DNA from: Bacteriovoracaceae bacterium
GTDB taxonomy: Bacteria; Bdellovibrionota; UBA1018
NCBI GenBank assembly: GCA_947447665.1
Contig: CANFJX010000002.1
Coordinates: forward strand, 209,659-273,658
Direction of reading: 5' to 3'
DNA length: 64,000 nucleotides
The translations under genes and the position numbers were made by a program. Below are positions 2,502-19,094 of the stretch, piece after piece (positions within the stretch are counted from its first letter, which is position 1; each line of letters begins with the position of its first letter). The notes below the pieces were generated by a model, which was given only the letters and a program-made list of their open reading frames with translations, was not told the DNA's origin and did no database searches.

Positions 2502-3341
2502 TTTTGATCACCCTAACTGAGTTTTCGAATGATGACAAAATCCCCATCGGGAACTCCGTCTTCGATCATCAAATGACTTGAGACTTGGCGAAACAAGGTA
2601 CTGAGCTACCTCCGCATGGGAAAAGGCAAAACCTTGTTTTCACTTAAAATCATTGATCAACTCGATGAAGTACTCTCAGTATAAGCGTAGGTTTGGCGTA
2701 AGTCCAGTTTTTCCCGGGCGGGTACGGCTGGGCTAATTAATCACTCGTGAAGAACTCTTGAATGGCACTTCCACACTCCCTGCACTCAAGGGGAGGCAAC
2801 CCCAAGAGCTTTTCAATAGTAGGTCGAATATCGAGATGACTGAGCTCGCGGCCGGTAGTCGGGGACAGAGGAGAGCTCTTCGCAGAGAGCTTGACCTTTT
2901 TTAGCTGACTCAGCTGTCTCGACGATTTTGTCGAGCATTTGAACACCGTGTGCATCAGCTCCTAAAATTTGTTTTGAGAATTGAGCATATCTATCTATTG
3001 AGGACGTAGTTTTAAATCCTAACCGCCTCGCAGAATCTACAATTTTTTCAGAGTTGACTAAAACTTTCCTGTAATATCCTATATTCAATAATATCAAACA
3101 CTTAGTTCATGACGCGGGGTCCGATGTGGAACACATCTGATCCCGCCGACGATTTAATTATCATCTGATTTCCAGAACTCATTAACCACCTACTCTCATA
3201 ACTGTAACAACGATTCGCCCTGCGATGTGCAATTCGTCAGTCCCTATGACGCCTGACAAGTGGATTCTCGTTAAAACGGTCGTCAACCTAGAACTTGGTG
3301 TCGTTCAATTGACTTTGCTCCAGCTTGTTACAATTTTTACA

Positions 3342-3698
3342 TCATGCTATTTTTGAATCTACAGGAGCAATTCCATATCCATTTAAACTTGCGTCCACTA
3401 GATGGAATATCGCCGCATCCAAGTCTGCAAATGTTTGTCTCCAGTGCTTACCGCCTCGCTCCGACAAAAAGACTTCAAAACCATCGTCGCACTTCATTAG
3501 GTAGTATGCTTTTTTGTCTCTTGGATCGCCATGCCATATTTGGTCAATTAAGTCGGCTCCGTTTCCACCTAATTTCTTGTATTCGGCAATTAGCCCTTGA
3601 ATTGAAATCCTGTCCAAAACATTAGAGCCATATTTGCTAAGCAATTCTTTCTTTTGAAGTCCATTCAAGACATCGACTAATAGACAATTTTGATTCAT
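3342..3698 (-). CDS. Small acidic cytoplasmic protein (118 aa from the M10 start), candidate immunity or partner protein
   Basis: The ORF track gives 3342-3725. An internal ATG at 3698-3696 overlaps the upstream TAA stop as TAATG, and a GGAGG motif lies 6 nt upstream. No signal peptide. The protein has balanced composition, unlike the antisense ORF 3344-3625. Confidence 0.55.
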   Translation of the reverse strand: MNQNCLLVDVLNGLQKKELLSKYGSNVLDRISIQGLIAEYKKLGGNGADLIDQIWHGDPRDKKAYYLMKCDDGFEVFLSERGGKHWRQTFADLDAAIFHLVDASLNGYGIAPVDSKIA

Positions 3699-5884
3699 TA
3701 GAAACCTCCGCCGTTGGTGATCCATGTTCTAGGGACGATTTTATTTACGTAGACTTGATGCCCACCACCCAGAATTTGTCCAACGGGTGTTGGGTTGTTA
3801 AATCTTCTTAGCGCAACTTCACCAACAACGCCTTCATAGAATTTCTCACCTGATGGTACAGTAATTTCAACCCATTTTTTTGCCGAATTACCCCAAGAGG
3901 GGTCCAAAGCAGAATCAAGGACAGCTTGATAGGGACCAGTGGGCTTTACATGAGACCAGTAGGCTGATAGTTCTTTGCCGTCAGTTGCATACACTCGATA
4001 CAGCTTTACTGGCTCTTTCGTCACAATCTCCAGATAGCTAGAACTTCTAAAGGCATCCGCTACCGTTCCCACACCCTCGGTTATTGCGTGGAGTGGACCA
4101 TGATTTATTGGATTAAACTTCTGTATACTCGCCGCAGAATCTAGCATTCTCTGCACCCCTTCAATGCCCTCACTCCTGAGAAGGGTTGAGGCAAGGTCGG
4201 GGGCTTGATCCGCCAGAGCGTTCAGGTTGGTTGCCGCTGCCGCGGTCAGAGACCCTGCACTGTCAGCGGCTAAAACCATTTCTTGAGCTGCAAAGCGATG
4301 AACGACCAGTTCTACCCCTTTTTTGAGAGCGACCTGAGTCTCTGCGGCTAGGGGACATCCGAAAATCAATCCAGTGAGATCAGCCGTGAGTTCTCCGATG
4401 ATTTCGCCTTGTGTTTCCTCATCAGAGTGGATGAACGATTGCCATTTTTCTCGGATCAGGCCTTGAACTCCACTCTGAGATTCCGTAATTGCCTTAACTC
4501 CCTCATAAATGACGTAACCCACCGCTCCAGCTGCTAGGGTGACCGTAACGGCAGGAGGCAAAATAGCTGCTGCAACGACCCCCGCCCCAACGAGCACCCC
4601 TCCTCGAAGAGCTCCCCGGGTAAATCCCTTCAGAGCATCCAAACAGGGCCTTAGCTCCGATAGGGTGTGCTTGAAAGCTGCTGAATGGCCGCTAGCTCCT
4701 AAACGATCCGCCAATAATAAGCCCACTTTCAGACTCTCGGTATGAGAGTTGAAAAAAGAGCATCCCTCAGTATCAATTGCCCCTAGGCCAGGACACTGAT
4801 CTTGGACCATGCTCTGAGCCACGATCACTGTATTTACCGCGGTCCTCACCTCAAAACCCTCGGAGCTTCTGAGAGAAGTAGTCAGCCGAAGGCCCGTGTA
4901 ATCGACTCCGGGTAAATTGTGAATCAGCCCTTGATCATTCAGGATCCCGCGATCGATGAGTTGTTTTTCGATATAGTATCCGGAATTTTGGGTCACCCCA
5001 TCCTTGCTGTTTAGAAATGACTGAATTTCAGACAAAGCCTCTTCGACTGCGTCTAAATGTCTGGAACGATCCGCCCCGCTGAGAGCCTCCACTAACTGGG
5101 TTACGCTCTCATTGAGAATATCTTTAGGATGAGTCGCTCGTTTTGGGTCAAAGCCTCGAGCCTCCTGTTGCCAGACTGAAGCAGCTAAATTCGCTGCCTG
5201 TGGGCGCCGCTCTTGGACGATTTGCTGCTGCCGTTCTTCCATCCTGTTTGAAAATCGAAGGTCCCCGAAATCTCCGGAGGGTGTAACTCCCCGAGGTATT
5301 CCACTTCCGCCTAAGCCTGAGCCAACTGGGGTCAAACTCGCCTTGATGCCTTCTGTGTTTGCTCGTTGCACTCGGTTTAGCTCTCTACTCCAACCCTCAC
5401 GAGCAGCGTGGGAAGCTACTGCACCCCATCCCGAAGTGTCTTGGGACGGAGGCGAGATCATCCCTCCGGCAGGAGCATCTGTCGATCCTTCGTTCGTGGG
5501 CGCAGTTTGTGCTGGCAAACCTGGAGCTAGATCACGCAAATCAAAGCTGGCAGGGATATTCTGCCGCAGAGGGGTAGACTCCCCTGTATGCCGCGGAATT
5601 TGTGGGTTGGTCAGGCAATGACTAAAATAGTGTTCGACGGTGATCGCTCCTTCAACGGAGCGATGCTGAACCGACTGCTCCCAGCAAACCCGATCCACGC
5701 CTCGAAAATCTACGGTCCTTGGATCTTGGATGTATTCCTTATCCCCTCCCCTTTCGATAAAATATCGAATATCATCCTCGACGGCGTGAGAGGGCAGACT
5801 CGATAATCCGAATGCGAGCATCAAAATCGATGTAATTGACAGAGGTGTTCTACTCTTCATTTTTTTGTAAATTTTAGCTACCAT
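3698..5884 (-). CDS. Secreted 728-aa protein with a signal peptide, a central glycine-zipper segment and a C-terminal domain of unknown function
   Basis: N-terminus MKSRTPLSITSILMLAFGLSSLPSHA is Sec-like. The central segment GALRGGVLVGAGVVAAAILPPAVTVTLAAGAVGYVIY is a glycine zipper. The C-terminal ~130 aa (LYRVYATDGKELSAYWSH...GGGHQVYV) matches no family I can name. Confidence 0.65.
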   Translation of the reverse strand: MVAKIYKKMKSRTPLSITSILMLAFGLSSLPSHAVEDDIRYFIERGGDKEYIQDPRTVDFRGVDRVCWEQSVQHRSVEGAITVEHYFSHCLTNPQIPRHTGESTPLRQNIPASFDLRDLAPGLPAQTAPTNEGSTDAPAGGMISPPSQDTSGWGAVASHAAREGWSRELNRVQRANTEGIKASLTPVGSGLGGSGIPRGVTPSGDFGDLRFSNRMEERQQQIVQERRPQAANLAASVWQQEARGFDPKRATHPKDILNESVTQLVEALSGADRSRHLDAVEEALSEIQSFLNSKDGVTQNSGYYIEKQLIDRGILNDQGLIHNLPGVDYTGLRLTTSLRSSEGFEVRTAVNTVIVAQSMVQDQCPGLGAIDTEGCSFFNSHTESLKVGLLLADRLGASGHSAAFKHTLSELRPCLDALKGFTRGALRGGVLVGAGVVAAAILPPAVTVTLAAGAVGYVIYEGVKAITESQSGVQGLIREKWQSFIHSDEETQGEIIGELTADLTGLIFGCPLAAETQVALKKGVELVVHRFAAQEMVLAADSAGSLTAAAATNLNALADQAPDLASTLLRSEGIEGVQRMLDSAASIQKFNPINHGPLHAITEGVGTVADAFRSSSYLEIVTKEPVKLYRVYATDGKELSAYWSHVKPTGPYQAVLDSALDPSWGNSAKKWVEITVPSGEKFYEGVVGEVALRRFNNPTPVGQILGGGHQVYVNKIVPRTWITNGGGF

Positions 5885-5919
5885 AAATAAAAATCCATAG
5901 ATAAACTGATTGTCCTGGC

Positions 5920-6867
5920 CTACATCTGTGTTCTTGCAAAATTAATCCCATCTTCATGAATTCGATCTAACTCCTCTTGAGTCATAGGGATCACTCCTAA
6001 TAACCCAGGTTCGCCAACTACATTTTGGAGCATGGGCCTAATGGTCTCCCAATTCGGTAGTGGATCTGGCTTAAAATTCGCGTGGAAAGATAAGATTTCC
6101 CAATATTTCCTCCAAACGCGCTTGATTGGTGGGGGCGAGTTCGTATGGAATGCTGTGATTGCTGTCATTAGCAGTAAGTTGACTTCTCCCAATTCCTCAC
6201 GCTTCAAGACGGATGTTAGAATTTTAAAGTCATCCACCATTCCAGCAATGTTAAAACCGGCTCGACCTAAAAATTTTCCACATGCGACACCCCGTAATCC
6301 TGTTTCTGTTCCATCACCTCGGGTCGACCTAATTCTCTGCTCTGCCATTCTTCGGACCAGCCTAAAGTCATGGCGATTCATCCGCTCTCTCTCAAGAGAC
6401 TCTGTCCTTAGGTTCTCAAAACGGATTAATTGTTGAATCGCAGGCGCAATCTCAATTGAGCAATTTTGAAATTGCTCCAGATTAAAAACAAGTCCTTCGG
6501 CTCTTGGAATTGTGACCGCTTTTTCACCTCTAGGAACTCGTCGAACTAACTCGAAGTTCCTGATTTCATTTCTTAGAATTCCAAAATGCCGGTCTGTGTC
6601 TCTGATGAGAGTAGCGCTTCCTTCTTTCCCTTCAGACATCAGGTGACTGAAAGACTTTGTTTGAGGCGAGGCAGATGGGGCAGGATGGATCCTTTCCGAC
6701 AAAACGGTGCCAGAATTAAGGGCATCGACGGACAAACCCAGAATAAAATGATCTGGCTCAGACCTGAAGGTTAACTGTTCAGTCACAACGCGATCTGCGT
6801 AACTAGAAAAAGCCTCGCCGAACAAAACAGCAGAACACATTAAAAATCTATTCAAGCTTTTAATCAT
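5920..6867 (-). CDS. Secreted hypothetical protein (315 aa)
   Basis: N-terminal hydrophobic signal MIKSLNRFLMCSAVLFGEAFSSYA. Tightly packed in the operon. Confidence 0.55.
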   Translation of the reverse strand: MIKSLNRFLMCSAVLFGEAFSSYADRVVTEQLTFRSEPDHFILGLSVDALNSGTVLSERIHPAPSASPQTKSFSHLMSEGKEGSATLIRDTDRHFGILRNEIRNFELVRRVPRGEKAVTIPRAEGLVFNLEQFQNCSIEIAPAIQQLIRFENLRTESLERERMNRHDFRLVRRMAEQRIRSTRGDGTETGLRGVACGKFLGRAGFNIAGMVDDFKILTSVLKREELGEVNLLLMTAITAFHTNSPPPIKRVWRKYWEILSFHANFKPDPLPNWETIRPMLQNVVGEPGLLGVIPMTQEELDRIHEDGINFARTQM

Positions 6868-6883
6868 ATTAAAACAAATTCTT

Positions 6884-8182
6884 TCATTGCAAGGCTCTTC
6901 CGATAAGCGATGGTTTTAATGACTCCCATGGATCACTCGTCAATCGCGAAAACAATGCGTCGCCAATCACGAGGCTAGTCCAAAAATTCTGCAAAACACT
7001 ACCTCTGTCGATCACTGGTTCCCGAAGTTGAAAAAAATAGGGGGCAATCCCCTGTTTAATGAAAAGAAAAGATGCTCTACTTTCCTGCTGACGAATCGAA
7101 TATGACTTATCTAGTTCTGTGAGAACAGCGTCCTCAAGGTGTGGGAAGTAAGAGTCCTCTAAATCACTCATCAGCTCACTCCATCGATTTTTTAAACCTT
7201 GCCAATCTCCCTTGATACTTTCCACATAGGCTACTACCTGATTCAGGTGCTCCGAGTTGAGCTCCAGTGCAGCTTGAATCTTAGGTTCGAACTCAGGAAG
7301 CAAAAAATCTTCGCAAACCGCAGTAATCAGTAAAAGTGCGCCTTCATCGATTGCACTTATGGCGCGGATCTGGTGTTGTCGAATCTCCTGAATCAGCTCC
7401 CACTGACGGCTGATCTTGCCCGATTCGATTGCAGAATCAATCGAGCTCCAAACAGCTAGAACCGCAACAGCCACGACTGCGCCTACTGGTCCAGCTGCAG
7501 AAGTCGCGACCAAACCCTTCAGTACTCCAAGTTTGACTGCAGTACCAGCGGCGGCACCGGCGAGTGATCCGACAACACCCTTCGCATTGGTTCCGCCCTG
7601 AGAATGAGCCTCGCCTGCCGAATCTATTGAGATGGTGCAATCTTCTTGTGGAGGCAGAAGAGCAGCTAGATTAGGCAGTACAAAGATCTTCTTAGGTTGA
7701 TTGCGATCGAGAGCCCACTGCAATCGGTCGTTTGCGCATCGGGTTTTCCAAAATTCGGAGATTGAACTCAGATCGCTTCTCACGTTTCGAAGCGTAACAA
7801 GCTCATCTTCGAGATCTTTTTGGATGAGGAGTATTTTTAATACACTTTCGGAGAAAGATGCAGGTGTAGCCCGCATGATTTCTTGCATTTTTAGATCCCA
7901 ATTATTTTTGAGCTGCTCAGATTTATTTGAGGCAGTCTCTTGCATTTCTAACAGGATCTGAAAGGCGTCCCAGTAGTCGGATAACCGCTGTAAGAAATGG
8001 GTCTTAATATCTGATTTAAACTTTTTATCTACGTAATCCTTGTAGCTAACTTTGGTCTCATGGAGAATTTCTGATAAGAGCGTAATATTATCATCTAATT
8101 TGTCGGCAAAGGCAGGGGTAATTGTGTTGGAATTTAATGAAATACAAATAAAAATTGCGATTATTTTGTTTTTATTTTTCAT
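6884..8182 (-). CDS. Secreted coiled-coil and glycine-zipper protein (432 aa), paralogous in its central domain to the 728-aa protein
   Basis: Signal peptide MKNKNKIIAIFICISLNSNTITPAFA. The glycine zipper GVVGSLAGAAAGTAVKLGVLKGLVATSAAGPVGAVVAVAVLAV is followed by ESGKISRQWELIQEI, to be compared with ESQSGVQGLIREKWQSF in the 728-aa protein. Confidence 0.6.
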   Translation of the reverse strand: MKNKNKIIAIFICISLNSNTITPAFADKLDDNITLLSEILHETKVSYKDYVDKKFKSDIKTHFLQRLSDYWDAFQILLEMQETASNKSEQLKNNWDLKMQEIMRATPASFSESVLKILLIQKDLEDELVTLRNVRSDLSSISEFWKTRCANDRLQWALDRNQPKKIFVLPNLAALLPPQEDCTISIDSAGEAHSQGGTNAKGVVGSLAGAAAGTAVKLGVLKGLVATSAAGPVGAVVAVAVLAVWSSIDSAIESGKISRQWELIQEIRQHQIRAISAIDEGALLLITAVCEDFLLPEFEPKIQAALELNSEHLNQVVAYVESIKGDWQGLKNRWSELMSDLEDSYFPHLEDAVLTELDKSYSIRQQESRASFLFIKQGIAPYFFQLREPVIDRGSVLQNFWTSLVIGDALFSRLTSDPWESLKPSLIGRALQ

Positions 8183-8188
8183 ATTTTT

Positions 8189-10162
8189 TTAATTTCCAGC
8201 CAAACTCGTCAATACACTGAGGTGGAGAGATAATCTCTGAATTGCGTCCTCTGGAGTAATCATTTTAAAACCGGTAATCACAGATGCGGGTGATACTAAT
8301 GCGGAATTGGGAATCAATTTCCTAACCTTTTCGATTTCGACTGTTTTCTGGTTTAAAAATAAAATATCAAAATTGGCATAAGCTGATTGGATAGCGATTA
8401 AATCTCCGAAAATTTTATCGAACCAGCCAAAAATATGAAAAAACCGGGATGAATGAGTCCGATCTAAAGCAACTCTTTCTGGATTTGGAGCCACCAGATC
8501 CGGAGATATGACTTCGGATCTGACATGATCTGGAACGGTTGAGTTGTAGCTTGGAAAGATATCATACTTAGCTTTTATGTTTTTAGGATCTCTCAAATCA
8601 GGATTGCCCAAGCAGACTGGGATCTCGAAATGACTTGTAAAATTAATAATTTGATCTTTAAGTCCTTCAGTTGCCTTGTTGTATTTTAAGCACTTTTGGA
8701 GTGATTGATGGAGACTCGATTTAAAAAAACTATCCACCTCGAACAGAGAGTCCTCCAATTGCTTTTTGATCAGCGTCAGATCGGGATGCGCATGATTAAT
8801 CTCTCGCATTGCCTCTAAAAGGGGTTCGGCTACCTGCAACAATTGATCACGCGAAACCACCGCACCTGGGACGTTTTCCTGTTCAGTAAGTGGCCGGACC
8901 AAGTGGCGGTCCCAAGCTTCAATCAAGGCTGCTCCCCGGGCCAGGAGGATGGGATTAATCTCCTCTGCAAGAAATTGAAGCTCTCCCGTAAAGATGTCAT
9001 CACTGTCTTTCCGAGAGAACAAATGGGTGATGCTTTCAGAAACGAGGAGCCGGAGAATCCGAGACCAGTGAAACTGAAACCAACTTCGAGCCACGTCAGT
9101 TCTCATCTGCTCCAACTCGTAAAAGTCTCGCACTACGGACCCTCGAGTTAACTCGAAACCCGCATCAAGGAAATTTTGATAGTATTCGTAATTTCCTGGC
9201 ACGGAAGGTCCAGGAGTACCGGACGGTCCTACCCCTAAACTCGAAGGGCTCGGGGTGCTAGAATCCACCTGACCACAGGCTCCTGGGCCCAGCTTCTTCG
9301 TGCCAAGGACTCGCCAACAAGAATCGCCGTCACCCCCTTGGCCAGGCCTTCCCTCGTCGCCCACTGGACCGCCTTCGCCTCCTGCTCCGCCTAATCCGGG
9401 AGAAGATTTTACGAAATTTAGCTGGAGCTCGCTTACGGTCTTTTTGGAAGTGAGAAAAACAATCGGAACTGAGCCACCACCCTTGCCTCCTGGGCCACCT
9501 TGGCCTCCCTGGCCTCTTTGTCCTGAATCGCCCCCATGGCCTGCTTCCCAGCTCCAAACAAGCCCAACCCAAGCCTTCTCGCCTCGGCCACCGGCGCCAC
9601 CGGTGCCACCCTTTCCACCGGTGCCACCTTGACCGCCTTTTTGTCCAGTTCCATCAATCGTTGGAGTTCCGATGACTTCAGCCGCAAAGACCAAAATCGG
9701 ACTTGGGGAGGCCTTTGCTGAAGGTCCAGTATATCCTGTGGCTCCAGTCCCTCCTACTCCCCCCTTTTCTCCATCATGCGTGCGCTCGCTTGATACATTC
9801 CTACAGGAATCACATCCAGTGGATCCTTGAACACCCACTGCAGGCATCAAATGGTTCCGCGCCATGGGGAGAGAATAAGCCTTAATCGTCGCGCCAGCCT
9901 TAAACTCAAGTCTGCGGGTATCGATCAGGAGCTGATGGCCCCGAGTCACAATGGTCCCATTAATGATGACTTCATCCGCTTTGATAACCGTGGGACCGGT
10001 CAAAACGTAAACTGGATTTCCCAATGTGACTCGATCATGCGACCTTCTCATTGCGCCTGAAAAATCTTCGAATTCGCTGGGGGGTGGCAGCTCAACACAC
10101 AACGCTTGATGTACCATTGTGAACCAAGCGCACGCCACCGTCCAAACGCTGAATTTACTCAC
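8189..10162 (-). CDS. Secreted bacterial collagen-like protein (657 aa): N-terminal beta-rich segment, several interrupted (G-X-Y)n runs, C-terminal helical domain
   Basis: Runs such as GEKGGVGGTGATGYTGPS, GQKGGQGGTGGKGGTGGAGGRGEK and GLGGAGGEGGPVGDEGRPGQGGDG keep Gly at every third position. The 8-bp start/stop overlap with the upstream gene is another sign of operon packing. Confidence 0.65.
   Translation of the reverse strand: MSKFSVWTVACAWFTMVHQALCVELPPPSEFEDFSGAMRRSHDRVTLGNPVYVLTGPTVIKADEVIINGTIVTRGHQLLIDTRRLEFKAGATIKAYSLPMARNHLMPAVGVQGSTGCDSCRNVSSERTHDGEKGGVGGTGATGYTGPSAKASPSPILVFAAEVIGTPTIDGTGQKGGQGGTGGKGGTGGAGGRGEKAWVGLVWSWEAGHGGDSGQRGQGGQGGPGGKGGGSVPIVFLTSKKTVSELQLNFVKSSPGLGGAGGEGGPVGDEGRPGQGGDGDSCWRVLGTKKLGPGACGQVDSSTPSPSSLGVGPSGTPGPSVPGNYEYYQNFLDAGFELTRGSVVRDFYELEQMRTDVARSWFQFHWSRILRLLVSESITHLFSRKDSDDIFTGELQFLAEEINPILLARGAALIEAWDRHLVRPLTEQENVPGAVVSRDQLLQVAEPLLEAMREINHAHPDLTLIKKQLEDSLFEVDSFFKSSLHQSLQKCLKYNKATEGLKDQIINFTSHFEIPVCLGNPDLRDPKNIKAKYDIFPSYNSTVPDHVRSEVISPDLVAPNPERVALDRTHSSRFFHIFGWFDKIFGDLIAIQSAYANFDILFLNQKTVEIEKVRKLIPNSALVSPASVITGFKMITPEDAIQRLSLHLSVLTSLAGN
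9170..9780 (-). repeat. Low-complexity GGN/ACC-rich coding repeats, e.g. ccaccggtgccacc units, that encode the collagen-like G-X-Y tracts
   Basis: The visible reiteration of ccaccggcgccaccggtgccaccctttccaccggtgccacc gives rise to spurious Pro-rich antisense ORFs. Confidence 0.6.
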
Positions 10163-12515
10163 TTTCGATCTCCTCTTGATTCTGGCTAAAACTGCCTAAG
10201 TCGCCCTTGGGTCCATCCGGATTCACAGGCCCTAGGGTTCCTGCTGGCAGCTCGAAGCTCCGCGTTTTAACTTGGGGTAAGATTTGGTGATCTAACAGGT
10301 CCTTGGCAGCTATTTGTTCCTGAAGAGCAAGAAGGGCTTGCTCGGCACGCGCACGAATACAATCTAAATTGATTCCTGGGCAAACTCGATTGAGTTTTTG
10401 AGCCTGTTGCGTGGGAGAGAGGTAGCTAAAGTCTTCCTTGATAAACACTTGAATTGTCGGATCCGTCTCAGACTTTCGTGTAGCCGACTCAAACAGGAGG
10501 CGTAGGTCATGAATAGATGGATTGTCTAAAAAATGATCGCCACTAGCGGTCGAAGCCTCAGCAGATCGCGATAAACTCCATCGCCTAGTAAATTGAATAA
10601 AAGTAGCTAAATCCAAGTCCGTAGCGTCGCCATCACCACCTCGTCGCGCAGGCACGGCCCTTTGTCCTGAACCACCTTGGCTCTCTAAGATAGGAAAAAA
10701 ATTCACTCGGGGCGCCTGGTCTGCCCCTCCAGGCCCAGGTCTCAATCTTACCCTGAGGCTACCACCAGAATAACCTTTCAAGGCTTTCGCAAGAGCAGCT
10801 CGACCCGGTTGGGCTTCTTTTTCGATCACATGGAGAACAAAATAATAGGTTCCCTGGCCCCTGGAGAAATCAGGATGGTTCACCTGGAAACCTACGATCA
10901 ACGGAAACGTGATCGCAGCATCTTCTTTTAGGGGACTCTCTGCGGGCAAGTCCGGATGCTTTAGGGCTGAGCTCAGATCAAATAAGGATCCATCGATTTG
11001 TGTAGTCACCCAATCTAAGCTCACATCAGGAGCGATGATAGCAGAGTCAAACGGCATATTCACTGTGGGTGTCTCTAGTTCAACCCGGGTCGGACCGACC
11101 GCTCCGTCAACAAAAGTGCAACCGCGCTCTTCTATTAGATGGGCTAAGTCTGCGGCATTTCCGACTGAAATTCTCCTTGAGGGAATACCAGCAGCATCCA
11201 GCGCACCACAAAACGATTGAATGGAAGCAGTCGTTGGGTGGAGATAGGCATTCAGTCGAAAGGTTAAAATTCGGTCAAGCAGAGTCAAGCTTGCAGGGAC
11301 CGGTAAAACGGGGACAGAGGCTAGTTCAGGAAATGCTACACTGGGCATGACTCGCTGAATTCTCAGTCGAAACCACATTGCATCCAACGATTGATGCGTA
11401 TATCCGCTGGGTAAGCTCTCCAAAAACTCAGAAATCGGCTGATTACTTCTCTGTAGTTCAGTCTCATAGCGTCGGTACAAGTCCTCAATCCAAGCAAGAG
11501 CGTGAACTGATGAATGGACAGGACTCAGTTTTCTCTCGATCTCTCGCAAGTCCATAAGTAAATTCCATCCCAGTCGAAGTTTGGAATATACCTGCTCTTT
11601 TTCAGTAGGTTCTCTTCCTCGATTCTGGAGTAGTTCAGAAAAAAAGGCCTGCTTCAGTCGATCGAGAAATTCGTTCAGTTGATCTTGTCTTAGGTTTAGA
11701 AAAATAGACTCGCTCGAACTCATGAAAAGTTGTATTAAATTGGAGAATCTAAATTTATTCAAAAGTAAGTTAAATGTTTCTGGGCTTTTAATGATGGAAT
11801 CAAGAGTCCTGTTTAGAAAATGAACATGCCCCAATTTTTTTAGATGAAATTGGACCAGTGAAATGACAAGAGAACTATTAGGGTTCTCTTCGGAAAGCAG
11901 GGACTCGACTACTTTTTGCCAAGTTGGAGCTGAAAAAATTCCAATCAACTCTCGCCAGTTAAGATTTTGATTCAGCTTTGATTCTTCAGTCAATAATTCT
12001 GCCAAATAGGTGGAATTCTCAAGAAGATCGATTGGATCCTGTTGACGGACTAATTGAGTGTTCAGCTCGGATAGAATTGCGCTCAGCGCATCAGGTGATA
12101 GAGGCGTGGTACATTTCTTAAGTGGCTTTAATAAGTAAGCTAGACCGTGAGCATGAGTGCGAGCAACCTCTCCAAAGGATTGGAAATGCTCGATTTGGCA
12201 AGAAATCGAATGTAATTGAAAAAGTTTATCTCGATTGTCGGGCTCAAGCTGGTCTAAAATATTTCTACTTAGAACCTCGCCCCAGAACTTAGACCACCCA
12301 AAGTCTGCTGGAATACTTTTTTTAATTCTGTCTAATGCTTGTGATCTCTCTTGGTTATTGGAGGCTTTTCTTAAAATATAGATTGCAGTATCTGCATTGA
12401 ATGTAGGGTGCACGCTGACGCCAACTAAGCCACGGCTGCAGCTAGTGGCAAAAAAAAGCGTTAGAACACATGGATAAATCAGCTGAAACAATGTAGTTTT
12501 TAAATCCATTTTCAT
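10155..12515 (-). CDS. Large secreted or lipoprotein-like hypothetical protein (786 aa), first gene of the operon
   Basis: N-terminus MKMDLKTTLFQLIYPCVLTLFFATSCS is a signal peptide with a possible lipobox. The rest is mostly helical with no recognisable catalytic motif. Confidence 0.6.
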   Translation of the reverse strand: MKMDLKTTLFQLIYPCVLTLFFATSCSRGLVGVSVHPTFNADTAIYILRKASNNQERSQALDRIKKSIPADFGWSKFWGEVLSRNILDQLEPDNRDKLFQLHSISCQIEHFQSFGEVARTHAHGLAYLLKPLKKCTTPLSPDALSAILSELNTQLVRQQDPIDLLENSTYLAELLTEESKLNQNLNWRELIGIFSAPTWQKVVESLLSEENPNSSLVISLVQFHLKKLGHVHFLNRTLDSIIKSPETFNLLLNKFRFSNLIQLFMSSSESIFLNLRQDQLNEFLDRLKQAFFSELLQNRGREPTEKEQVYSKLRLGWNLLMDLREIERKLSPVHSSVHALAWIEDLYRRYETELQRSNQPISEFLESLPSGYTHQSLDAMWFRLRIQRVMPSVAFPELASVPVLPVPASLTLLDRILTFRLNAYLHPTTASIQSFCGALDAAGIPSRRISVGNAADLAHLIEERGCTFVDGAVGPTRVELETPTVNMPFDSAIIAPDVSLDWVTTQIDGSLFDLSSALKHPDLPAESPLKEDAAITFPLIVGFQVNHPDFSRGQGTYYFVLHVIEKEAQPGRAALAKALKGYSGGSLRVRLRPGPGGADQAPRVNFFPILESQGGSGQRAVPARRGGDGDATDLDLATFIQFTRRWSLSRSAEASTASGDHFLDNPSIHDLRLLFESATRKSETDPTIQVFIKEDFSYLSPTQQAQKLNRVCPGINLDCIRARAEQALLALQEQIAAKDLLDHQILPQVKTRSFELPAGTLGPVNPDGPKGDLGSFSQNQEEIESE

Positions 12516-12596
12516 AAATTTTTAGTTTCTATTTAAAATAAACGGATGTATATTACGAAACGCATTTATAAGTCAACTATTCATTGTTGGTATTAA

Positions 12597-13304
12597 ATGA
12601 GAATTTTTAAACGAATTAATTCGAGTGAAAGCATGAAGATTTTTATTTTCATAATATTTTGCACCATTCTTGGTCCAGTAGTCCAAGCCGAAGACCTACC
12701 TGTTGCAATTAATTTAAACGAAGAGATTCCACAGAAGCTGATCTATGGCGATGTTTTTATTGGGCAAAGCATTGAACCTAACCAGCATAAACTTAACTCT
12801 TACATTCAGTATAGTTCAGGTACTAACAGTCCCCAGTACTCGCTCACAGGTGCTAATTTAGGTTCAGATTATTGGCTTCTAAATTCACTTATGGTTGGTA
12901 TGAGTCTAAATTACTATTCAAGTTCTCCACTTTTACTTCAAGAAGTTCTCAGTAATGAACTCCGACTCAATGCAGTTTCACTTAAATATTACAGCCCAAA
13001 ATTCGGAATCTACGCCCATTTGGGGTATGTCCCACTTCAGGGGATCTTCAATCTATTTGAGAAGTTTGTAATTAAATCGAGTCTCATTGTGGGACTCGGT
13101 TTAGGGACGACCCAATATAGTGATCACGCATTTTATCCAGGCATAAAGATCTTTATCGAAGAAAGACTCCTTCTCTACAAAACATTTGGAATTAGCTTGG
13201 GTATTACGCATTTCTGGGAAGGAAACCATCCTCAACTGGAATCTCAAAATACTCATTGGTTAAGCAGGGATCAAGTGGTTTCGGGGGTCTACCTTGAACT
13301 CTAG
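12597..13304 (+). CDS. Small secreted protein, probably an outer-membrane beta-barrel (235 aa; the start may be the internal Met at 12633)
   Basis: Signal peptide MKIFIFIIFCTILGPVVQA. Alternating hydrophobic pattern. It is divergent from the secreted operon across an AT-rich intergenic region. Confidence 0.5.
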   Translation: MRIFKRINSSESMKIFIFIIFCTILGPVVQAEDLPVAINLNEEIPQKLIYGDVFIGQSIEPNQHKLNSYIQYSSGTNSPQYSLTGANLGSDYWLLNSLMVGMSLNYYSSSPLLLQEVLSNELRLNAVSLKYYSPKFGIYAHLGYVPLQGIFNLFEKFVIKSSLIVGLGLGTTQYSDHAFYPGIKIFIEERLLLYKTFGISLGITHFWEGNHPQLESQNTHWLSRDQVVSGVYLEL

Positions 13305-13818
13305 AATTAAAACCACTTTAACCTTAGGGCTGACTGCATTCTTTCTTCTCGGGGCGCTAGACGGCTTTTCCTCCCAAGAAAGGGCCAACTTAGACCTGGG
13401 TCGCCTCATGAATGCCCAAAAGAAAAGCTACCTAGAAAGGAATTGGGATGCATTTTTTGGGACTGCTCAAGTGTATCGGCTCGCTTGGTGGAACGAGGTT
13501 CCATCCGTGACGCTGATCGCCCTCGAAGCTCTGGCGCTCGCTCGTCATTGCCGATATGCAGAGGCTGAATTGCTCATTGCCACCTTGGGTTCTCATTCAA
13601 GCGCCCGACGTGGTGAAACGGAGGCCATCCAGCAAGTCAAACACCTTCTGACTTCTGTTAAAAAGTTAGGCATCCAGGCACAAGAGAATTCCTCTCTCCA
13701 TATCTCGTCGAGAGCTAATCCCGAAGTATTTTGGCCGATCCAAAACTTATCACTTTGGAAGCGTTTACCGCCCACTTCCTTCCGTGTGCATATGGAGAGT
13801 AAATGTCGTTTAGAATGA
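13294..13818 (+). CDS. Secreted helical-repeat (TPR-like) protein, 174 aa
   Basis: Signal peptide MNSRIKTTLTLGLTAFFLLGALDG. Overlaps both neighbours. Confidence 0.5.
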   Translation: MNSRIKTTLTLGLTAFFLLGALDGFSSQERANLDLGRLMNAQKKSYLERNWDAFFGTAQVYRLAWWNEVPSVTLIALEALALARHCRYAEAELLIATLGSHSSARRGETEAIQQVKHLLTSVKKLGIQAQENSSLHISSRANPEVFWPIQNLSLWKRLPPTSFRVHMESKCRLE

Positions 13819-15773
13819 ATCTCATTCGATTGGCTCCTCTAGTGTTCGGCGCCTTTTCTCCGGCCTGGGGAGTCGCTCTCCCTTCGGTGGATGACGTCCG
13901 CCCTCCGGTCAAGGCGTCAGACACGATCTCATCAGCTTCCGCCCTTCTGGCGGCAGGGGAGCCAGAGCAGGCGATTACCATTTTAAGGGCGATTTTTTCT
14001 TCCAAAAGGGCAGGAGACATTCGGTTTAATGCGGCTCTTCTTTTGGCTTCATTTGGCCCAGGCACGAGTGCCTTCCCTGATCGTGCCGTTTATGCAGAAT
14101 TTGTTCTGAGTCATCCTCTGGCTGTCAGCAGGTTAAAAAATTCAGATCGAATTCGACTCCTCAGGAGCGCAGGACTCGGTTGGTTTAGTTTGGCGAGATG
14201 GCCCGAGGCCTCCCTCTCGTTCGAAAAGCTGCGGAACCTCGGAGGACCTGACGATGGCTCCCTCTCCGAGCTTCATCTCGGCTGGATTGAGTTGAACCAA
14301 AAGAATCCAAAGCTAGCTCTGCAGCGTTGGTTAAGTTTTCTCGGTCATCACCAGCATGAGGTCGATCAACCATGGGGACCCACGCTCATCCGGGACCTGG
14401 GTCATGTCTGGATTGAAGCTGGAGGGTTCCCGCCCGAGGTTGGTGAGCAAATCGACCGACTCATCCAAAGTCATGATGAACTCAAATATTTCCGGGAGGG
14501 GATGTCACAAGGACTAGGTTTGATTCCTTTGGATTCTCCCACATGGGCCAGTTTTCGGGGCTCAGCATTAAAAACTCGTATGAGTCGCCACCTAGCGGAT
14601 TTACTCCTCAAAAACCCTGAGGCAATCGAGTCACATCCCTGTGAAATCTTAGACTGGATCAAGCAGGACGGCTCCATCGGAGGCGGCGAAACTCAGGGTC
14701 AATTATTTGTCTCGCTCCAGAACTGCTTAAAGTCCCCTGGGATTACCGAAGGGGAAAATCGCAAAGTACTACTCACTTTATTGCATCCATGGATGTCTCA
14801 CCTCAGGAAGAGCTCGGGCATTTCGATTGAGGATCGGAGATTCGCTCTTCTTCATATTTTTTATCTTCAAAATGAACCAGACCTCAAAAAGAGGCAGGAG
14901 TGGTTAGAGAAATTTTACCCCAGCCCATCGGAAGTCAAAATCCTTAAGAATGGCCCAGTAGCTCTCCTGTGGTTGGAGGTTCTGCAAAGGCGCGCACATG
15001 ACGAAGATACTTCAATGATCAGAAAGTCATGGATTGATAATTTTTTAGAGAATCCGAGTCAATTTGAATTTGTACCCATACCTCCAGATGACCTCACACT
15101 CATTGCCTTGCAAATCAGTCAACAAGAACAAGTTTGGCTCCCGATCTGGAATTATCTCAATCGACTTGGGACAAAGATTTTCACTTCAGAAAGGGTTTTG
15201 GGATCACTTCACGTTTGGCTAACTAGCTTCATTTCACGTGCATTCTTGGACGGAAGCCTTCCGCCTGAGCCGTCAGTTGAATCGATTACTCAACCCTATT
15301 TTAATATCGTTCGATTTTTTATCTATTTGGAAAATCAATTTAACCAAAGTTTACAGCCCAGTGTTGAGTCTGACTTAGTTGGAGCATCCTGCCTAAAGGA
15401 TCATCTTAACGCTCAATTTAACACTCAATCTAGTCCGATATTTTCGGCCTACCATAGTACACGCGATGGCATAACTAGTTTAAAATCTGCATTAAAAATA
15501 AAAATCAAATTAGAATCTTCGCACTTCTTTAGCGACTTAAAAAAGCAAATAAGTTTCATCAAAAGTGGCTCATTATTTCTAAGAAAGGCTGGAATTTTAT
15601 TTCCGCCTGTCAAGCAAACCATGGCGAAAGTGTCAAATCTATATATTGACTCAATTCGATCTAACATTCAAGCGATAGAAGCACCCAATGAGTGGTCAGT
15701 GCCTGATCAAGAATCTTGGCGTGCCCAAAGGAAGCAGATTGCAGATGGCCTAAACGAGTGGAGAGCTGAATGA
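13803..15773 (+). CDS. Secreted 656-aa protein with an N-terminal TPR-like region
   Basis: Signal peptide MSFRMNLIRLAPLVFGAFSPAWG. The helical-repeat N-terminus includes AITILRAIFSSKRAGDIRFNAALLLASFG. Confidence 0.55.
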   Translation: MSFRMNLIRLAPLVFGAFSPAWGVALPSVDDVRPPVKASDTISSASALLAAGEPEQAITILRAIFSSKRAGDIRFNAALLLASFGPGTSAFPDRAVYAEFVLSHPLAVSRLKNSDRIRLLRSAGLGWFSLARWPEASLSFEKLRNLGGPDDGSLSELHLGWIELNQKNPKLALQRWLSFLGHHQHEVDQPWGPTLIRDLGHVWIEAGGFPPEVGEQIDRLIQSHDELKYFREGMSQGLGLIPLDSPTWASFRGSALKTRMSRHLADLLLKNPEAIESHPCEILDWIKQDGSIGGGETQGQLFVSLQNCLKSPGITEGENRKVLLTLLHPWMSHLRKSSGISIEDRRFALLHIFYLQNEPDLKKRQEWLEKFYPSPSEVKILKNGPVALLWLEVLQRRAHDEDTSMIRKSWIDNFLENPSQFEFVPIPPDDLTLIALQISQQEQVWLPIWNYLNRLGTKIFTSERVLGSLHVWLTSFISRAFLDGSLPPEPSVESITQPYFNIVRFFIYLENQFNQSLQPSVESDLVGASCLKDHLNAQFNTQSSPIFSAYHSTRDGITSLKSALKIKIKLESSHFFSDLKKQISFIKSGSLFLRKAGILFPPVKQTMAKVSNLYIDSIRSNIQAIEAPNEWSVPDQESWRAQRKQIADGLNEWRAE

Positions 15774-16036
15774 AAATTCTATCGAAAATGGCGATTATTT
15801 TCGTACTTTTTGTCTGCACAGCTGGACTGGTAATCCAAACCAAGGCTCAACCGCCTCAAGAAGAGGTTGACCTAGGGATCCTATCGGTTGAAGGCAGCAT
15901 TCGCTACCCAAGTTTCCAGGTGATCGAAAACCCTGAAACCCTCAGGAAGGTAACTCGCGAAGCATTGGGCCGTGAGCTGACTAGAATTGAGGAAGAAGTA
16001 CTCAGGTCTTGCGGGAGTGAAAATGAAACTGAATAG
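15770..16036 (+). CDS. Small secreted protein (88 aa)
   Basis: ATGA overlap with the upstream gene. Hydrophobic N-terminus MKILSKMAIIFVLFVCTAGLVIQT. Confidence 0.4.
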   Translation: MKILSKMAIIFVLFVCTAGLVIQTKAQPPQEEVDLGILSVEGSIRYPSFQVIENPETLRKVTREALGRELTRIEEEVLRSCGSENETE

Positions 16037-17120
16037 CCTTACTCAGATCTTTGCTCCCTGCCAAATTAGGGATAACCTTCGACTGAGCGTGGTGCCGCAG
16101 TCATTACTCCAGTCTCCCCCTCCCTTCGAGGCGAAGATGTCTCGAAACGGGCTTGAGATCCAGATCAAATCTTCTGACTCCCTTAAGGTCGTCAAAGCTG
16201 GGGTCGTCATTTATGACGGTAGACAGCTGATTTTTGAATCTAATTCTAATTTTCGAATTTTTGGAAGTTACGAGGACACTCTCGTGATTTCAAATCACTT
16301 CGGAGACTCATGGACTGTGTCGTTTAAATACGAAATGGCTTCGCCAGATGACCAGCAAGCGGGGATGTTTGCAAAATCATTTTTCGAGTCAGGCATGGCA
16401 CATTTGCTCCTCGTGATCCTGATAGCAGGGGCAATTTACGCCCAGAGCATACCCCTCCAACGATCGTCACCTCTCGACTCATCTTTAGGCCTCCGAATAG
16501 AAAGTAGAAATTCTGAGGCACCTTTAATTACATTTACGCCGTTTTCTGGGATGAGTCTGCGTGAATTTGAAATGCCAGAGTCATCGGAGCATTCAAATAC
16601 GAAGCGGACGTTTCAGCCTTTGAAGGCCCTTGGAAAAACGGCCTCATTTCTCAAATCATTCTTCGGCGGGAAGGCGAATCAGGCCCTCGAGATTACGTCA
16701 GGCCGATCCGCTTTGAGTGCAGTCGAGACAGCAAAAATTGACACCAGTCGACTGCTCGAGTCCACCCTAAAAAGGGACAACAGAATAGCCGGGGGCTCCG
16801 AGCAATTGGCAGCTCGAGCTAAGTCAAACGAACGAGAAAATAAATTAAGGCAAAAACTAGAGTCACTCAAACCAAAATTGACTGAAGCATTCGATCAAGC
16901 GGTTCGAATGGATCCGGCATTTTCTGTGAGTGTAACTATCGAGGGCTTGGTAAATAGTCGTGGACGGCTGTCCAGCGTCGAGCTCAAGTCTAGAGGTCAT
17001 TCTACTCCCCTGGCGCTAGCTGCCTTCGAAAGGCAAATCAGAAATATTCTTGAATCAGTAGAAATAGGCAATGAATTCTCAGGGCTCAAGTTACGAACGG
17101 AACATGTTTTTATCAAGTAG
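15987..17120 (+). CDS. TonB C-terminal-domain protein with atypical topology: about 125 aa come before the single TM helix (the start may be the ATG at 16023)
   Basis: TM segment MAHLLLVILIAGAIYAQSI at about residue 125. The C-terminus SVSVTIEGLVNSRGRLSSVELKSRGHSTPLALAAFERQIRNILESVEIG resembles the TonB-C fold signature. ExbB and ExbD genes lie directly downstream. Confidence 0.55.
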   Translation: MRKKYSGLAGVKMKLNSLTQIFAPCQIRDNLRLSVVPQSLLQSPPPFEAKMSRNGLEIQIKSSDSLKVVKAGVVIYDGRQLIFESNSNFRIFGSYEDTLVISNHFGDSWTVSFKYEMASPDDQQAGMFAKSFFESGMAHLLLVILIAGAIYAQSIPLQRSSPLDSSLGLRIESRNSEAPLITFTPFSGMSLREFEMPESSEHSNTKRTFQPLKALGKTASFLKSFFGGKANQALEITSGRSALSAVETAKIDTSRLLESTLKRDNRIAGGSEQLAARAKSNERENKLRQKLESLKPKLTEAFDQAVRMDPAFSVSVTIEGLVNSRGRLSSVELKSRGHSTPLALAAFERQIRNILESVEIGNEFSGLKLRTEHVFIK

Positions 17121-17150: not shown

Positions 17151-17795
17151 ATGATTAAGACGTTGTTTGATATTTTTCTTTTTTTGGGATCTGAGTGGGT
17201 TTTGTGGATTTTGGGAGGTTGTAGCCTTCTTTGTATTGCAGTGATTTTTGATCGTAGACGGGCGATTAGCGCTCAGGATCGGGTTGGAGAGAGGCTTTGG
17301 GCGGGTGCACTAAGAGTTTGGGTTACGGATCAGGTTCCTGCCGACTGGGCACTTCAGGCACCTGAGTTTTTGAAGCGGTATCCTTGCGTAGAAGCTAGGC
17401 TCCTCAACTCGTTAGCCAATCGAAATCGTATCACTACCGGTGATATTGAAAAGATCAGCCTAAGTGTTTTAGCCGCCGAAAGATTAGAGTTAGAACGAAA
17501 CCTGGCAATCCTAGGTACCCTTGGAAATTCTGCCCCATTTATCGGTCTTTTTGGAACCGTTCTGGGAATTATCAAGGCTTTTTCGCAACTCGATCAGGCC
17601 GCCAGCGGAAGCGGACTTAATTCAGTGAGCGGTGGCCTAGCTGAGGCGTTGGTCACGACCGCGGCAGGCCTTTTAGTTGCCCTTCCGAGTGCGATAGCAT
17701 TCAATTACTTTCAGCGTAAAATAAAAGCGATTTTCTCTAGATCCATGAGCATAGCTGGTGCAGTGGGCTCAAGCCACAAAGAGGAGCGAATATGA
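17151..17795 (+). CDS. exbB: MotA/TolQ/ExbB-family proton channel
   Basis: 214 aa, three TM segments. Motif GTLGNSAPFIGLFGTVLGIIKAF is typical of ExbB/TolQ. Confidence 0.85.
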   Translation: MIKTLFDIFLFLGSEWVLWILGGCSLLCIAVIFDRRRAISAQDRVGERLWAGALRVWVTDQVPADWALQAPEFLKRYPCVEARLLNSLANRNRITTGDIEKISLSVLAAERLELERNLAILGTLGNSAPFIGLFGTVLGIIKAFSQLDQAASGSGLNSVSGGLAEALVTTAAGLLVALPSAIAFNYFQRKIKAIFSRSMSIAGAVGSSHKEERI

Positions 17796-18608: not shown

Positions 18609-19094
18609 TTAGAGCTGCTTTCGAGTGACGATCACGATCAGCTGTTCGCCTTGGAGCATGGGACAGGGCAAAACGAGATTCTTGCGAGTCTTACTTCCAG
18701 GGATCACTCGGACCACCTTCGACTCAAATAGACAACCCTCTTGAACAAAGATCTCTGCGTAATTAGCTTCTACTTTCGGCCAGTCACGGTCAAGGTAAGT
18801 CGAAACACGAATCTCAGGCGAGGGCGAAGACATCAAGTAATCGAATGTAGTGTCTTGGACGGCGACAGTGAGATCATCTGGGCTCTGAACCCCTTGCTGG
18901 ACCCGAATTTCAATCGTTTTCATCGCTTGTATATCGGCCATCAGCAGCTCAATGTCAAGCCGGAGGCGTTTTGGGTCTTCTTGGCTCAGACTTTGTTGAG
19001 CTAGGGTTGAGTTCCTATTTGCAGGAATCTCCAGGAGGCCGTAGTATTTTTTTAAGATCGACCTCGCTAGGAAGACTGATCGCCGCCTTGACAC
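18609..19094 (-). CDS. Hypothetical small protein (GTG start on the track; more likely about 110 aa from the internal Met), directly downstream of the 798-aa secreted protein
   Basis: The ORF overlaps the end of the 798-aa gene by 80 bp. No recognisable motif. Confidence 0.3.
   Translation of the reverse strand: MSRRRSVFLARSILKKYYGLLEIPANRNSTLAQQSLSQEDPKRLRLDIELLMADIQAMKTIEIRVQQGVQSPDDLTVAVQDTTFDYLMSSPSPEIRVSTYLDRDWPKVEANYAEIFVQEGCLFESKVVRVIPGSKTRKNLVLPCPMLQGEQLIVIVTRKQL

Follow-up and report, generated by a model that had tools for sequence, protein, structure and literature searches.

Maf systems of Neisseria are built on Sec-dependent polymorphic toxins that possess a lineage-specific constant domain and are preceded by a lipoprotein gene (PMC3482391, PMC4287609). 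A similar arrangement is seen in a 64-kb stretch of bacterial DNA on contig CANFJX010000002.1 (hereafter the window, with positions counted from its first nucleotide), where six minus-strand genes, designated g1–g6, occupy positions 3342–12515. With a probability of about 0.7, this operon is a Sec-dependent polymorphic toxin–immunity system with dedicated, co-inherited envelope accessory proteins. In this system, g5 would be the toxin, g6 its immunity partner and g1–g4 the accessory genes. Judged by architecture, MafA/MafB/MafI appears to be its closest analogue.

In both systems the toxin has a Sec signal and joins a lineage-restricted constant region to a polymorphic C-terminus, and the immunity gene (presumed in the case of g6) lies directly downstream. 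In both, a conserved, non-polymorphic lipoprotein gene is located upstream, and no dedicated secretion system is known (PMC3482391, PMC4287609). However, no sequence relationship exists between them, MafB-N/DUF1020 and MafA being unmatched in the Pfam scan of g1–g5. The operon also differs from Maf in having four accessory genes against one, in the glycine-zipper hairpin held by the constant region of g5, and in the lack of an array of alternative C-terminal cassettes downstream in the window.

The myxobacterial SitA/SitB/SitI proteins are outer-membrane-exchange toxins whose C-terminal enzymes have to reach the cytoplasm of the target cell (PMC5562445, PMC8546572). Found in a former deltaproteobacterial lineage, they resemble the present locus in that polymorphic toxins targeted to the envelope come with an accessory gene and, here presumably, an immunity gene (PMC5562445, PMC8546572). 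Unlike SitA, which is a lipoprotein, g5 has a leader (...LPSHA/VED) that by inspection is of the signal peptidase I type and lacks the lipobox cysteine. There is no sequence similarity to SitA, and TraA/B did not turn up here, where no search was aimed at them. Toxins of the Tne/TNT type (Tse6/Tne1, Tne2, Tne3–5 and M. tuberculosis TNT) have in common with g5 the ADP-ribosyltransferase-like fold predicted for its C-terminal cassette. However, HMMER finds no similarity to them in g5, and their immunity proteins are unrelated to g6. Moreover, g5 has no PAAR, Rhs or LXG domain and therefore does not belong to the proteins delivered by type VI secretion (T6SS) or ESX. The PT-TG/LXG toxins of Bacillota end in the same C-terminal toxin family as g5, but their trafficking domains (WXG/LXG, PT-TG) and dependence on type VII secretion (T7SS) are absent from it.

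Membership in T6SS, T7SS, contact-dependent inhibition or Rhs systems was rejected, as no marker domains were found. Repeats of the two-partner secretion/FHA kind, PAAR/VgrG/Rhs and WXG/LXG domains are lacking in g1–g6 and in the scanned neighbours. A phage tail or prophage module was also rejected, since a PHROG is matched by the cassette only and no viral loci turned up. The preliminary description of this DNA had proposed an undescribed system. As to its kind, the locus is very probably a known one, a polymorphic toxin–immunity locus of ordinary logic; the accessory set g1–g4 and the constant region of g5 are undescribed and rare.

The putative toxin g5 and its presumed immunity partner

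Searching 1.84 billion cluster representatives with the full g5 protein (HMMER) gave 802 matches, nearly all of which cover only g5 residues ~573–728. The matched stretch is C-terminal in every case, while the carrier proteins range from 123 to 2773 aa. Among 82 scanned carriers, PT-TG was found in 37, CdiA-type domains in three, and RHS repeats, a T7SS signal domain and PT-HINT in one each. Bacillus plasmid toxins annotated as 'pre-toxin TG domain-containing' or 'WXG100 family type VII secretion target' end in the same domain, each being followed by a gene of ~100 aa. Identity to the g5 cassette is 31–32% in these toxins and reaches 72% in metagenomic PT-TG proteins. The C-terminal position and the variety of carriers (PT-TG, LXG, CdiA, Rhs) thus identify the domain as a polymorphic-toxin cassette, and its sharing across secretion routes is a recognized property of such cassettes.

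A 1066-aa toxin of another locus (L009, JGI 3300047388, 10001–15301) also ends in a g5-type cassette. It carries an N-terminal LQxxAGNxAV motif, a leader of the type found in extracellular contractile injection systems (eCIS), and is adjoined by an eCIS_core (DUF4157) protein and a second protein with the same leader motif. This context points to loading of the cassette onto eCIS as well.

Ten matches cover g5 residues ~130–583, that is, not or not only the cassette, and have the N-terminal signal peptide in common. The constant region that defines this family is helical and contains two near-invariant cysteines and the motifs KWQxF...GEIxGExT...GLxYGG and AAxEMxLAA; the hydrophobic hairpin within it is kept in the family alignment. 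Across seven homologues the identity of the constant region is 23–50%, and similarity of the cassette is decoupled from it. Thus, the L012 toxin scores 676 in the constant region (50% identity) and 50 in the cassette, and the L017 toxin 101 in the constant region (23% identity) and 379 in the cassette (55% identity). The relatives share the constant region but differ in their C-terminal domains and in the small genes downstream. A conserved trafficking region with varying C-terminal domains, by which polymorphic toxins are recognized (PMC3482391), is therefore found in this family. Neither the cassette nor the constant region nor g6 has a second copy in the 64-kb window; orphan cassettes are frequent in such loci without being obligatory.

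The product of g6 is small and soluble, has neither a signal peptide nor a hydrophobic segment, and is translationally coupled to g5. A small open reading frame (ORF) takes the g6 position at every relative. No relationship exists among these ORFs, not even between loci that share a C-terminal family, and none behind the related toxins is similar to g6. The contigs of the two closest cassette relatives end at the toxin gene, with the downstream gene out of view. An orphan paralogue of the downstream small ORF is present at two loci (L013 and L014). Gene context suggests that g6 is probably the immunity protein, and g5 and g6 together are very probably a polymorphic toxin and its immunity partner. 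The effector-like C-terminal domain with a coupled partner, which had been noticed earlier, is borne out.

Exchange of cassettes and immunity genes among relatives, along with orphan paralogues of the latter, is a hallmark of conflict between related strains. It argues against the view that the operon is a weapon of a Bdellovibrionota predator, used on prey at attachment or invasion and not in competition among relatives. Such a role agrees with the envelope targeting of all components, and prey metabolism would be shut down by a toxin that destroys NAD+ and carries a membrane-insertion element. The SdhA of the window is closest to that of a Bdellovibrionota genome (76% identity), several other Bdellovibrionota being among the matches. 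However, this single marker is the basis of the lineage, other phyla scoring 68–74%, so that the assignment is of moderate strength, and there is no sign that the uncultured host is predatory; the predation role is considered unlikely.

Fold of the cassette and proposed action of the toxin

In an alignment of 34 cassette sequences, the residues R630, Q653, D657, N666, G706–708 and Q710 are invariant. AlphaFold2 modelled the cassette from this alignment with a predicted local distance difference test score (pLDDT) of 88 and a predicted template modelling score (pTM) of 0.80. Foldseek run with the model gave matches of appreciable probability within one protein set only. At the level of the model, the cassette is shown to have the ADP-ribosyltransferase fold, like the NAD(P)+ glycohydrolase (NADase) toxins Tne2 and Tse6. 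The presumed 'effector' domain of the preliminary description turned out to be a widespread toxin cassette with this fold. By hhalign, the cassette family profile was aligned with the C-terminal domain of protein P0013 at 94% probability; this latter domain touches Pfam TNT weakly (E 0.022, below the cutoff). The invariant R/Q/D/Q set is similar to the active-site cluster, Gln-Asp-Gln, that has been described in an Rhs NADase from Serratia (PMC10539506). NAD(P)+ is a likely target of the g5 toxin; the most likely activity is that of an NAD(P)+ glycohydrolase, ADP-ribosyl transfer being possible.

The following course of events is proposed. The g5 protein would be exported to the periplasm via Sec, where g1–g4 might keep it stable, pass it across the outer membrane or onto it and perhaps establish contact with the target. 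In the target cell, the hydrophobic hairpin could help the cassette to cross the inner membrane. The transmembrane domains of Tse6 and other T6SS effectors have been implicated in such a role (PMC7773334). The cassette would then destroy or misuse NAD(P)+ of the target, while g6 would remain in the cytoplasm of the producer and neutralize the toxin in the producer and its kin.

Glycine-zipper segments were found in g3 and g5, in line with the two glycine-zipper proteins reported earlier, and are conserved in both families. Glycine-zipper toxins are known (PMC10434224), and the two proteins might kill by membrane permeabilization as pore formers like TelE or CdzC/D, with the cassette being secondary. 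This is quite improbable, since the part that is exchanged among relatives is the enzymatic cassette and not the hairpin. In addition, a soluble, cytoplasmic product such as the presumed immunity protein suits an intracellular enzyme and not a pore. The adhesion module or pore-forming apparatus of the preliminary description found no evidence, either as an adhesion machine or as a stand-alone pore former.

The operon and its accessory genes

The six genes are a real operon, a single tightly coupled unit of mostly exported proteins. Intergenic spacings from g1 to g6 are −8, +6, +16, +35 and −1 nt. The g1/g2 overlap is the 8-nt sequence GTGAGTAA, and a GAGGAG Shine–Dalgarno sequence precedes the GTG of g2. 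The stop codon of g5 and the ATG of g6 share TAATG, with GGCGGAGG, including GGAGG, located upstream. Gene callers give 642 aa for g2 and 306 aa for g4, not 657 and 315; the longest possible ORF of g6 has 127 aa. Because the g1/g2 junction DNA is identical across all contigs of the species, the 642-aa call is a mere choice of start codon. The N-termini of the orthologues favour the longer starts of both g2 and g4.

Signal peptides and lipoboxes were called by inspection of the N-termini. The leaders of g3, g4 and g5 are of the AxA type (AFA/D, SYA/D and SHA/VED, respectively). Exact copies of all six proteins are confined to one metagenome-assembled species, in which they recur on as many as 13 contigs with a constant gene order; the sources are GCA_947379915.1, an ENA assembly and several Logan runs. 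Divergent syntenic homologues of g1–g5 exist outside this species. The base composition shows nothing anomalous. Promoter and terminator scans gave scores no better than those of shuffled sequence, and no terminator-like site was found on the minus strand after g6.

Models of Pfam, NCBIfam and PADLOC and the PDB sequences gave no family match for any of the six proteins. When the orthologues were included, the Pfam, NCBIfam, PHROGs and PADLOC scans yielded nothing except phrog_24213 on the g5 C-terminal domain. Searches of the PDB with single proteins and with family profiles (g5 C-terminal domain, g2, g3, g4) returned noise only. Among the species genomes of GTDB, the metagenome contigs of JGI and IMG/VR, the constant-region and g2 profiles found no match. 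A word-indexed protein search produced almost only self-matches; its negatives are weak, as it missed the known g4 homologues of L012 and L016, and with a concatenated g1+g4 query it failed to recover the g4 cluster itself. The preliminary description agrees with these data in the tightly packed six-gene minus-strand operon with spacings of −8 to +35 bp and two overlaps. It also agrees in the Sec or lipoprotein-like N-termini of all five large products and in the lack of a nameable family; the gene set proved to be conserved as a unit in related genomes.

The lipobox-like N-terminus of g1 (FFATSC/SRG) has a cysteine that is kept in the g1 orthologue, and the protein shows the conserved motifs HPDLPAE and SQGGxGQxAVP. 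Its orthologue in L099 (787 aa) occupies the equivalent position and is 25.7% identical over 756 aa (E 6e-65). The leader of g2 is hydrophobic, and the orthologue in L017 has a clean lipobox, AISGC. This protein consists of a beta-rich N-domain (ADEVIINGTI...), three Gly-X-Y blocks and a helical C-terminal half; its orthologues are 30% (L099, E 4e-36) and 26% (L017, E 2e-8) identical. Each block has exactly eight triplets, the three being located at residues 131–279 (window ~9330–9770) with short beta-like segments between them. A run of this kind occurred in 0 of 2000 shuffles, and the number and length of the blocks are the same in two g2 orthologues only 26–32% identical. The blocks contain 54–58% Gly and 0–2 Pro each. 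The collagen-like fibre protein proposed earlier was rejected in the sense of a canonical collagen fibre: the three Gly-rich blocks are short and poor in Pro, and no Pfam Collagen match was obtained. Polyglycine (polyglycine-II) motifs occur in phage gp38 adhesins (PMC12032242), of which the g2 blocks are reminiscent; this likeness is a lead only.

The g3 protein has a Gly/Ala-zipper hydrophobic segment at residues ~195–253 (glycine zipper at 223–253) and the conserved motif W..RC(S/A)D; orthologues were found in L012 (33% identity), L016, L017 and L099. In g4, two cysteines and the motif R-x-D-G...G..CG..LG are conserved. Its orthologues in L012 (38.5% identity, E 1e-74), L016, L017 and L099 each lie directly 5' of the toxin gene. 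Neither g1 (Pfam, NCBIfam, PDB), g3 (PDB profile) nor g4 (Pfam, NCBIfam, PDB profile) gave a match, and the g1–g4 orthologues gave none in Pfam or PDB either.

Four other metagenomic lineages keep the accessory genes in synteny with the toxin, the identities being ~20–40%. In L099, a 41.8-kb contig, the order is a divergent outer-membrane protein (OMP) barrel, a 787-aa g1-like gene, a duplicate of the g2 N-domain, g2-like (643 aa), g3-like (455 aa) and g4-like (331 aa) genes, a 585-aa toxin with another C-terminal domain, and a 279-aa ORF. Among these lineages, all of g1–g5 are represented in L099 only. The duplicate between the g1-like and g2-like genes is an extra 203-aa gene (5109–5720) that corresponds to the beta-rich N-terminal domain of g2 only, sharing 45% identity with g2 residues 62–99 over a 38-aa stretch. 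The L017 locus (NCBI GCA_054034315.1) consists of a g2-like lipoprotein, g3-like and g4-like genes, a toxin with the g5-type cassette and a small ORF. L016 has a g2 fragment, g3-like and g4-like genes, a toxin with a third type of C-terminal domain and a 117-aa ORF. L012, from a freshwater metagenome, has g3-like and g4-like genes, a toxin with a TNT-like C-terminal domain and a small ORF. From these gene orders, the conserved core is g2-g3-g4-toxin-immunity, with g1 in at least two lineages.

Thus g1–g4 travel together with the toxin constant region across lineages. Synteny and the localization signals give about even chances that g1–g4 serve the export or delivery of the toxin. Otherwise, g1–g4 might be an unrelated envelope operon, e.g., for a surface structure or adhesion, with the toxin pair lodged at its 3' end and no functional coupling. 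Such an operon would fit the absence of a detectable link between g1–g4 and any secretion system, the absence of g1–g4 near some toxin relatives and that of g1 in L017. However, g3 and g4 lie directly 5' of a toxin-family member in all four of the other lineages found, and this synteny persists at 20–40% identity with different flanks and C-terminal domains. The overlaps and tiny gaps also tie g1–g4 to g5, and homologues of g2, g3 and g4 were not found away from the toxin in searches that were insensitive. A chance association is accordingly improbable.

Several points weigh against a toxin–immunity system with dedicated accessory proteins. No g1-like gene lies upstream of the L017 locus. The toxin relatives L013 and L014/L100 have different upstream genes, the products of which, as far as L013 and L014 are concerned, showed no link to g3 or g4 in hhalign; members of the toxin family can therefore do without the accessory set. 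As g1–g4 have no predicted fold or family, their part in export or delivery is read from synteny and localization signals. No homologue of g6 was found in the resources searched, including plasmids by tblastn, so its immunity role is read only from its position. The hairpin could rather anchor g5 in the inner membrane of the producer, and the host organism is known from metagenomes only. The g5 cassette does not match Pfam TNT (PF14021) at E<=10, and its PDB profile search was empty. Finally, the modelled fold alone would not separate NADase from transferase activity. In a less likely version of the same architecture, the C-terminal domain would be an ADP-ribosyltransferase acting on a macromolecule, either protein or rRNA as with Tre1 or Tre23, and not an NAD(P)+ glycohydrolase.

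In L013 (5344–13882), a phage-type integrase and an HTH_17 gene come just before the toxin-family member; behind it lie a 123-aa ORF of immunity-like kind and a truncated paralogue of that ORF, 88 aa long. In view of the integrase, the toxin family can ride on a mobile island.

Neighbouring genes and biological significance

Table 1. Positions of the operon, the parts of g5 and the flanking genes in the window
Feature	Position	Strand	Description
g1	10155–12515	−	786-aa predicted lipoprotein; helical N-terminal half
g2	8189–10162	−	657 aa; GTG start; exported or lipoprotein-like
g3	6884–8182	−	432 aa; Sec signal; helical
g4	5920–6867	−	315 aa; Sec signal
g5	3698–5884	−	728-aa putative polymorphic toxin precursor: Sec signal, N-domain, constant helical region, C-terminal toxin domain
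g5 constant (family-defining) region	4175–4987	−	residues ~300–570
g5 glycine-zipper hydrophobic hairpin	4505–4615	−	residues 424–460, GGVLVGAGVVAAAILPPAVTVTLAAGAVGYVIY; from hydropathy
g5 C-terminal toxin domain	3701–4123	−	residues 588–728; predicted ADP-ribosyltransferase/NADase fold
g6	3342–3698	−	118-aa cytoplasmic protein, presumed cognate immunity protein
Presumed operon promoter region	12516–12596		81-bp divergent intergenic DNA 5' of g1; from position only
u1	12597–13304	+	235-aa divergent outer-membrane beta-barrel; TIGR04565 OMP_myx_plus, E 6e-5, below family cutoff
ImuA-like ORF	1944–2501	−	185 aa; NF033429, E 2.8e-8, below cutoff
ORF in ImuB position	628–1947	−	439 aa; no family match
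Start of DnaE2-like gene	~644 to window edge	−	1008 aa; Pfam PHP/DNA_pol3_alpha on same-species contigs

The gene u1 opens a plus-strand cluster (12597 to ~18200) that continues with ORFs of 174, 656, 88 and 377 aa belonging to no family and with ExbB (17151–17795, PF01618) and ExbD. A u1 homologue (E 4e-8) lies divergently beside the g1-like gene in L099, and u1 may be associated with the operon. Homologues of u1 and of the flanking genes u3 (E 9e-5) and u4 (E 5e-5) flank the L099 toxin operon in a rearranged order (1957–2604 and 13964–16401). Their recurrence could reflect a functional link or residual synteny. Between the ExbB/ExbD cluster and sdhB, a 798-aa ORF (19015–21411, minus strand) matches nothing in Pfam, PHROGs or PADLOC.

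Directly downstream of the operon, on the minus strand of positions 1–2501, lies an imuA-imuB-dnaE2-type mutagenesis cassette. A Y-family polymerase and YolD also adjoin the g5-type cassette toxins of Bacillus plasmids, which is probably a coincidence. The 840-bp gap between g6 and imuA (2502–3341) contains only doubtful small ORFs with no family match, namely a 94-aa ORF with a TTG start (2813–3097) and a 72-aa gene called by pipelines (2737–2955).

A bolder proposal is that g1–g4 and the g5 constant region form an undescribed envelope apparatus, which would bring a toxin exported via Sec through the outer membrane or onto it and deliver it to other cells. The apparatus might cooperate with the outer-membrane barrel and the ExbB/ExbD-type cluster nearby, homologues of which also flank the L099 locus. 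This proposal is held as tentative and, on present indications, rather doubtful. If true, it would mean a new route of toxin export and delivery in Bdellovibrionota-like bacteria.

The literature search found no paper joining Bdellovibrionota, toxin and NADase. The operon adds a polymorphic toxin system in a lineage that is probably Bdellovibrionota. It also adds a large toxin family with a predicted ADP-ribosyltransferase/NADase fold, comprising at least 800 clusters and having no Pfam model. For MafB and other Sec-dependent polymorphic toxins, the way out of the diderm cell and on to the target is an unresolved question. Being co-inherited with the toxin constant region, g1–g4 are concrete candidates for the missing step of export or delivery.

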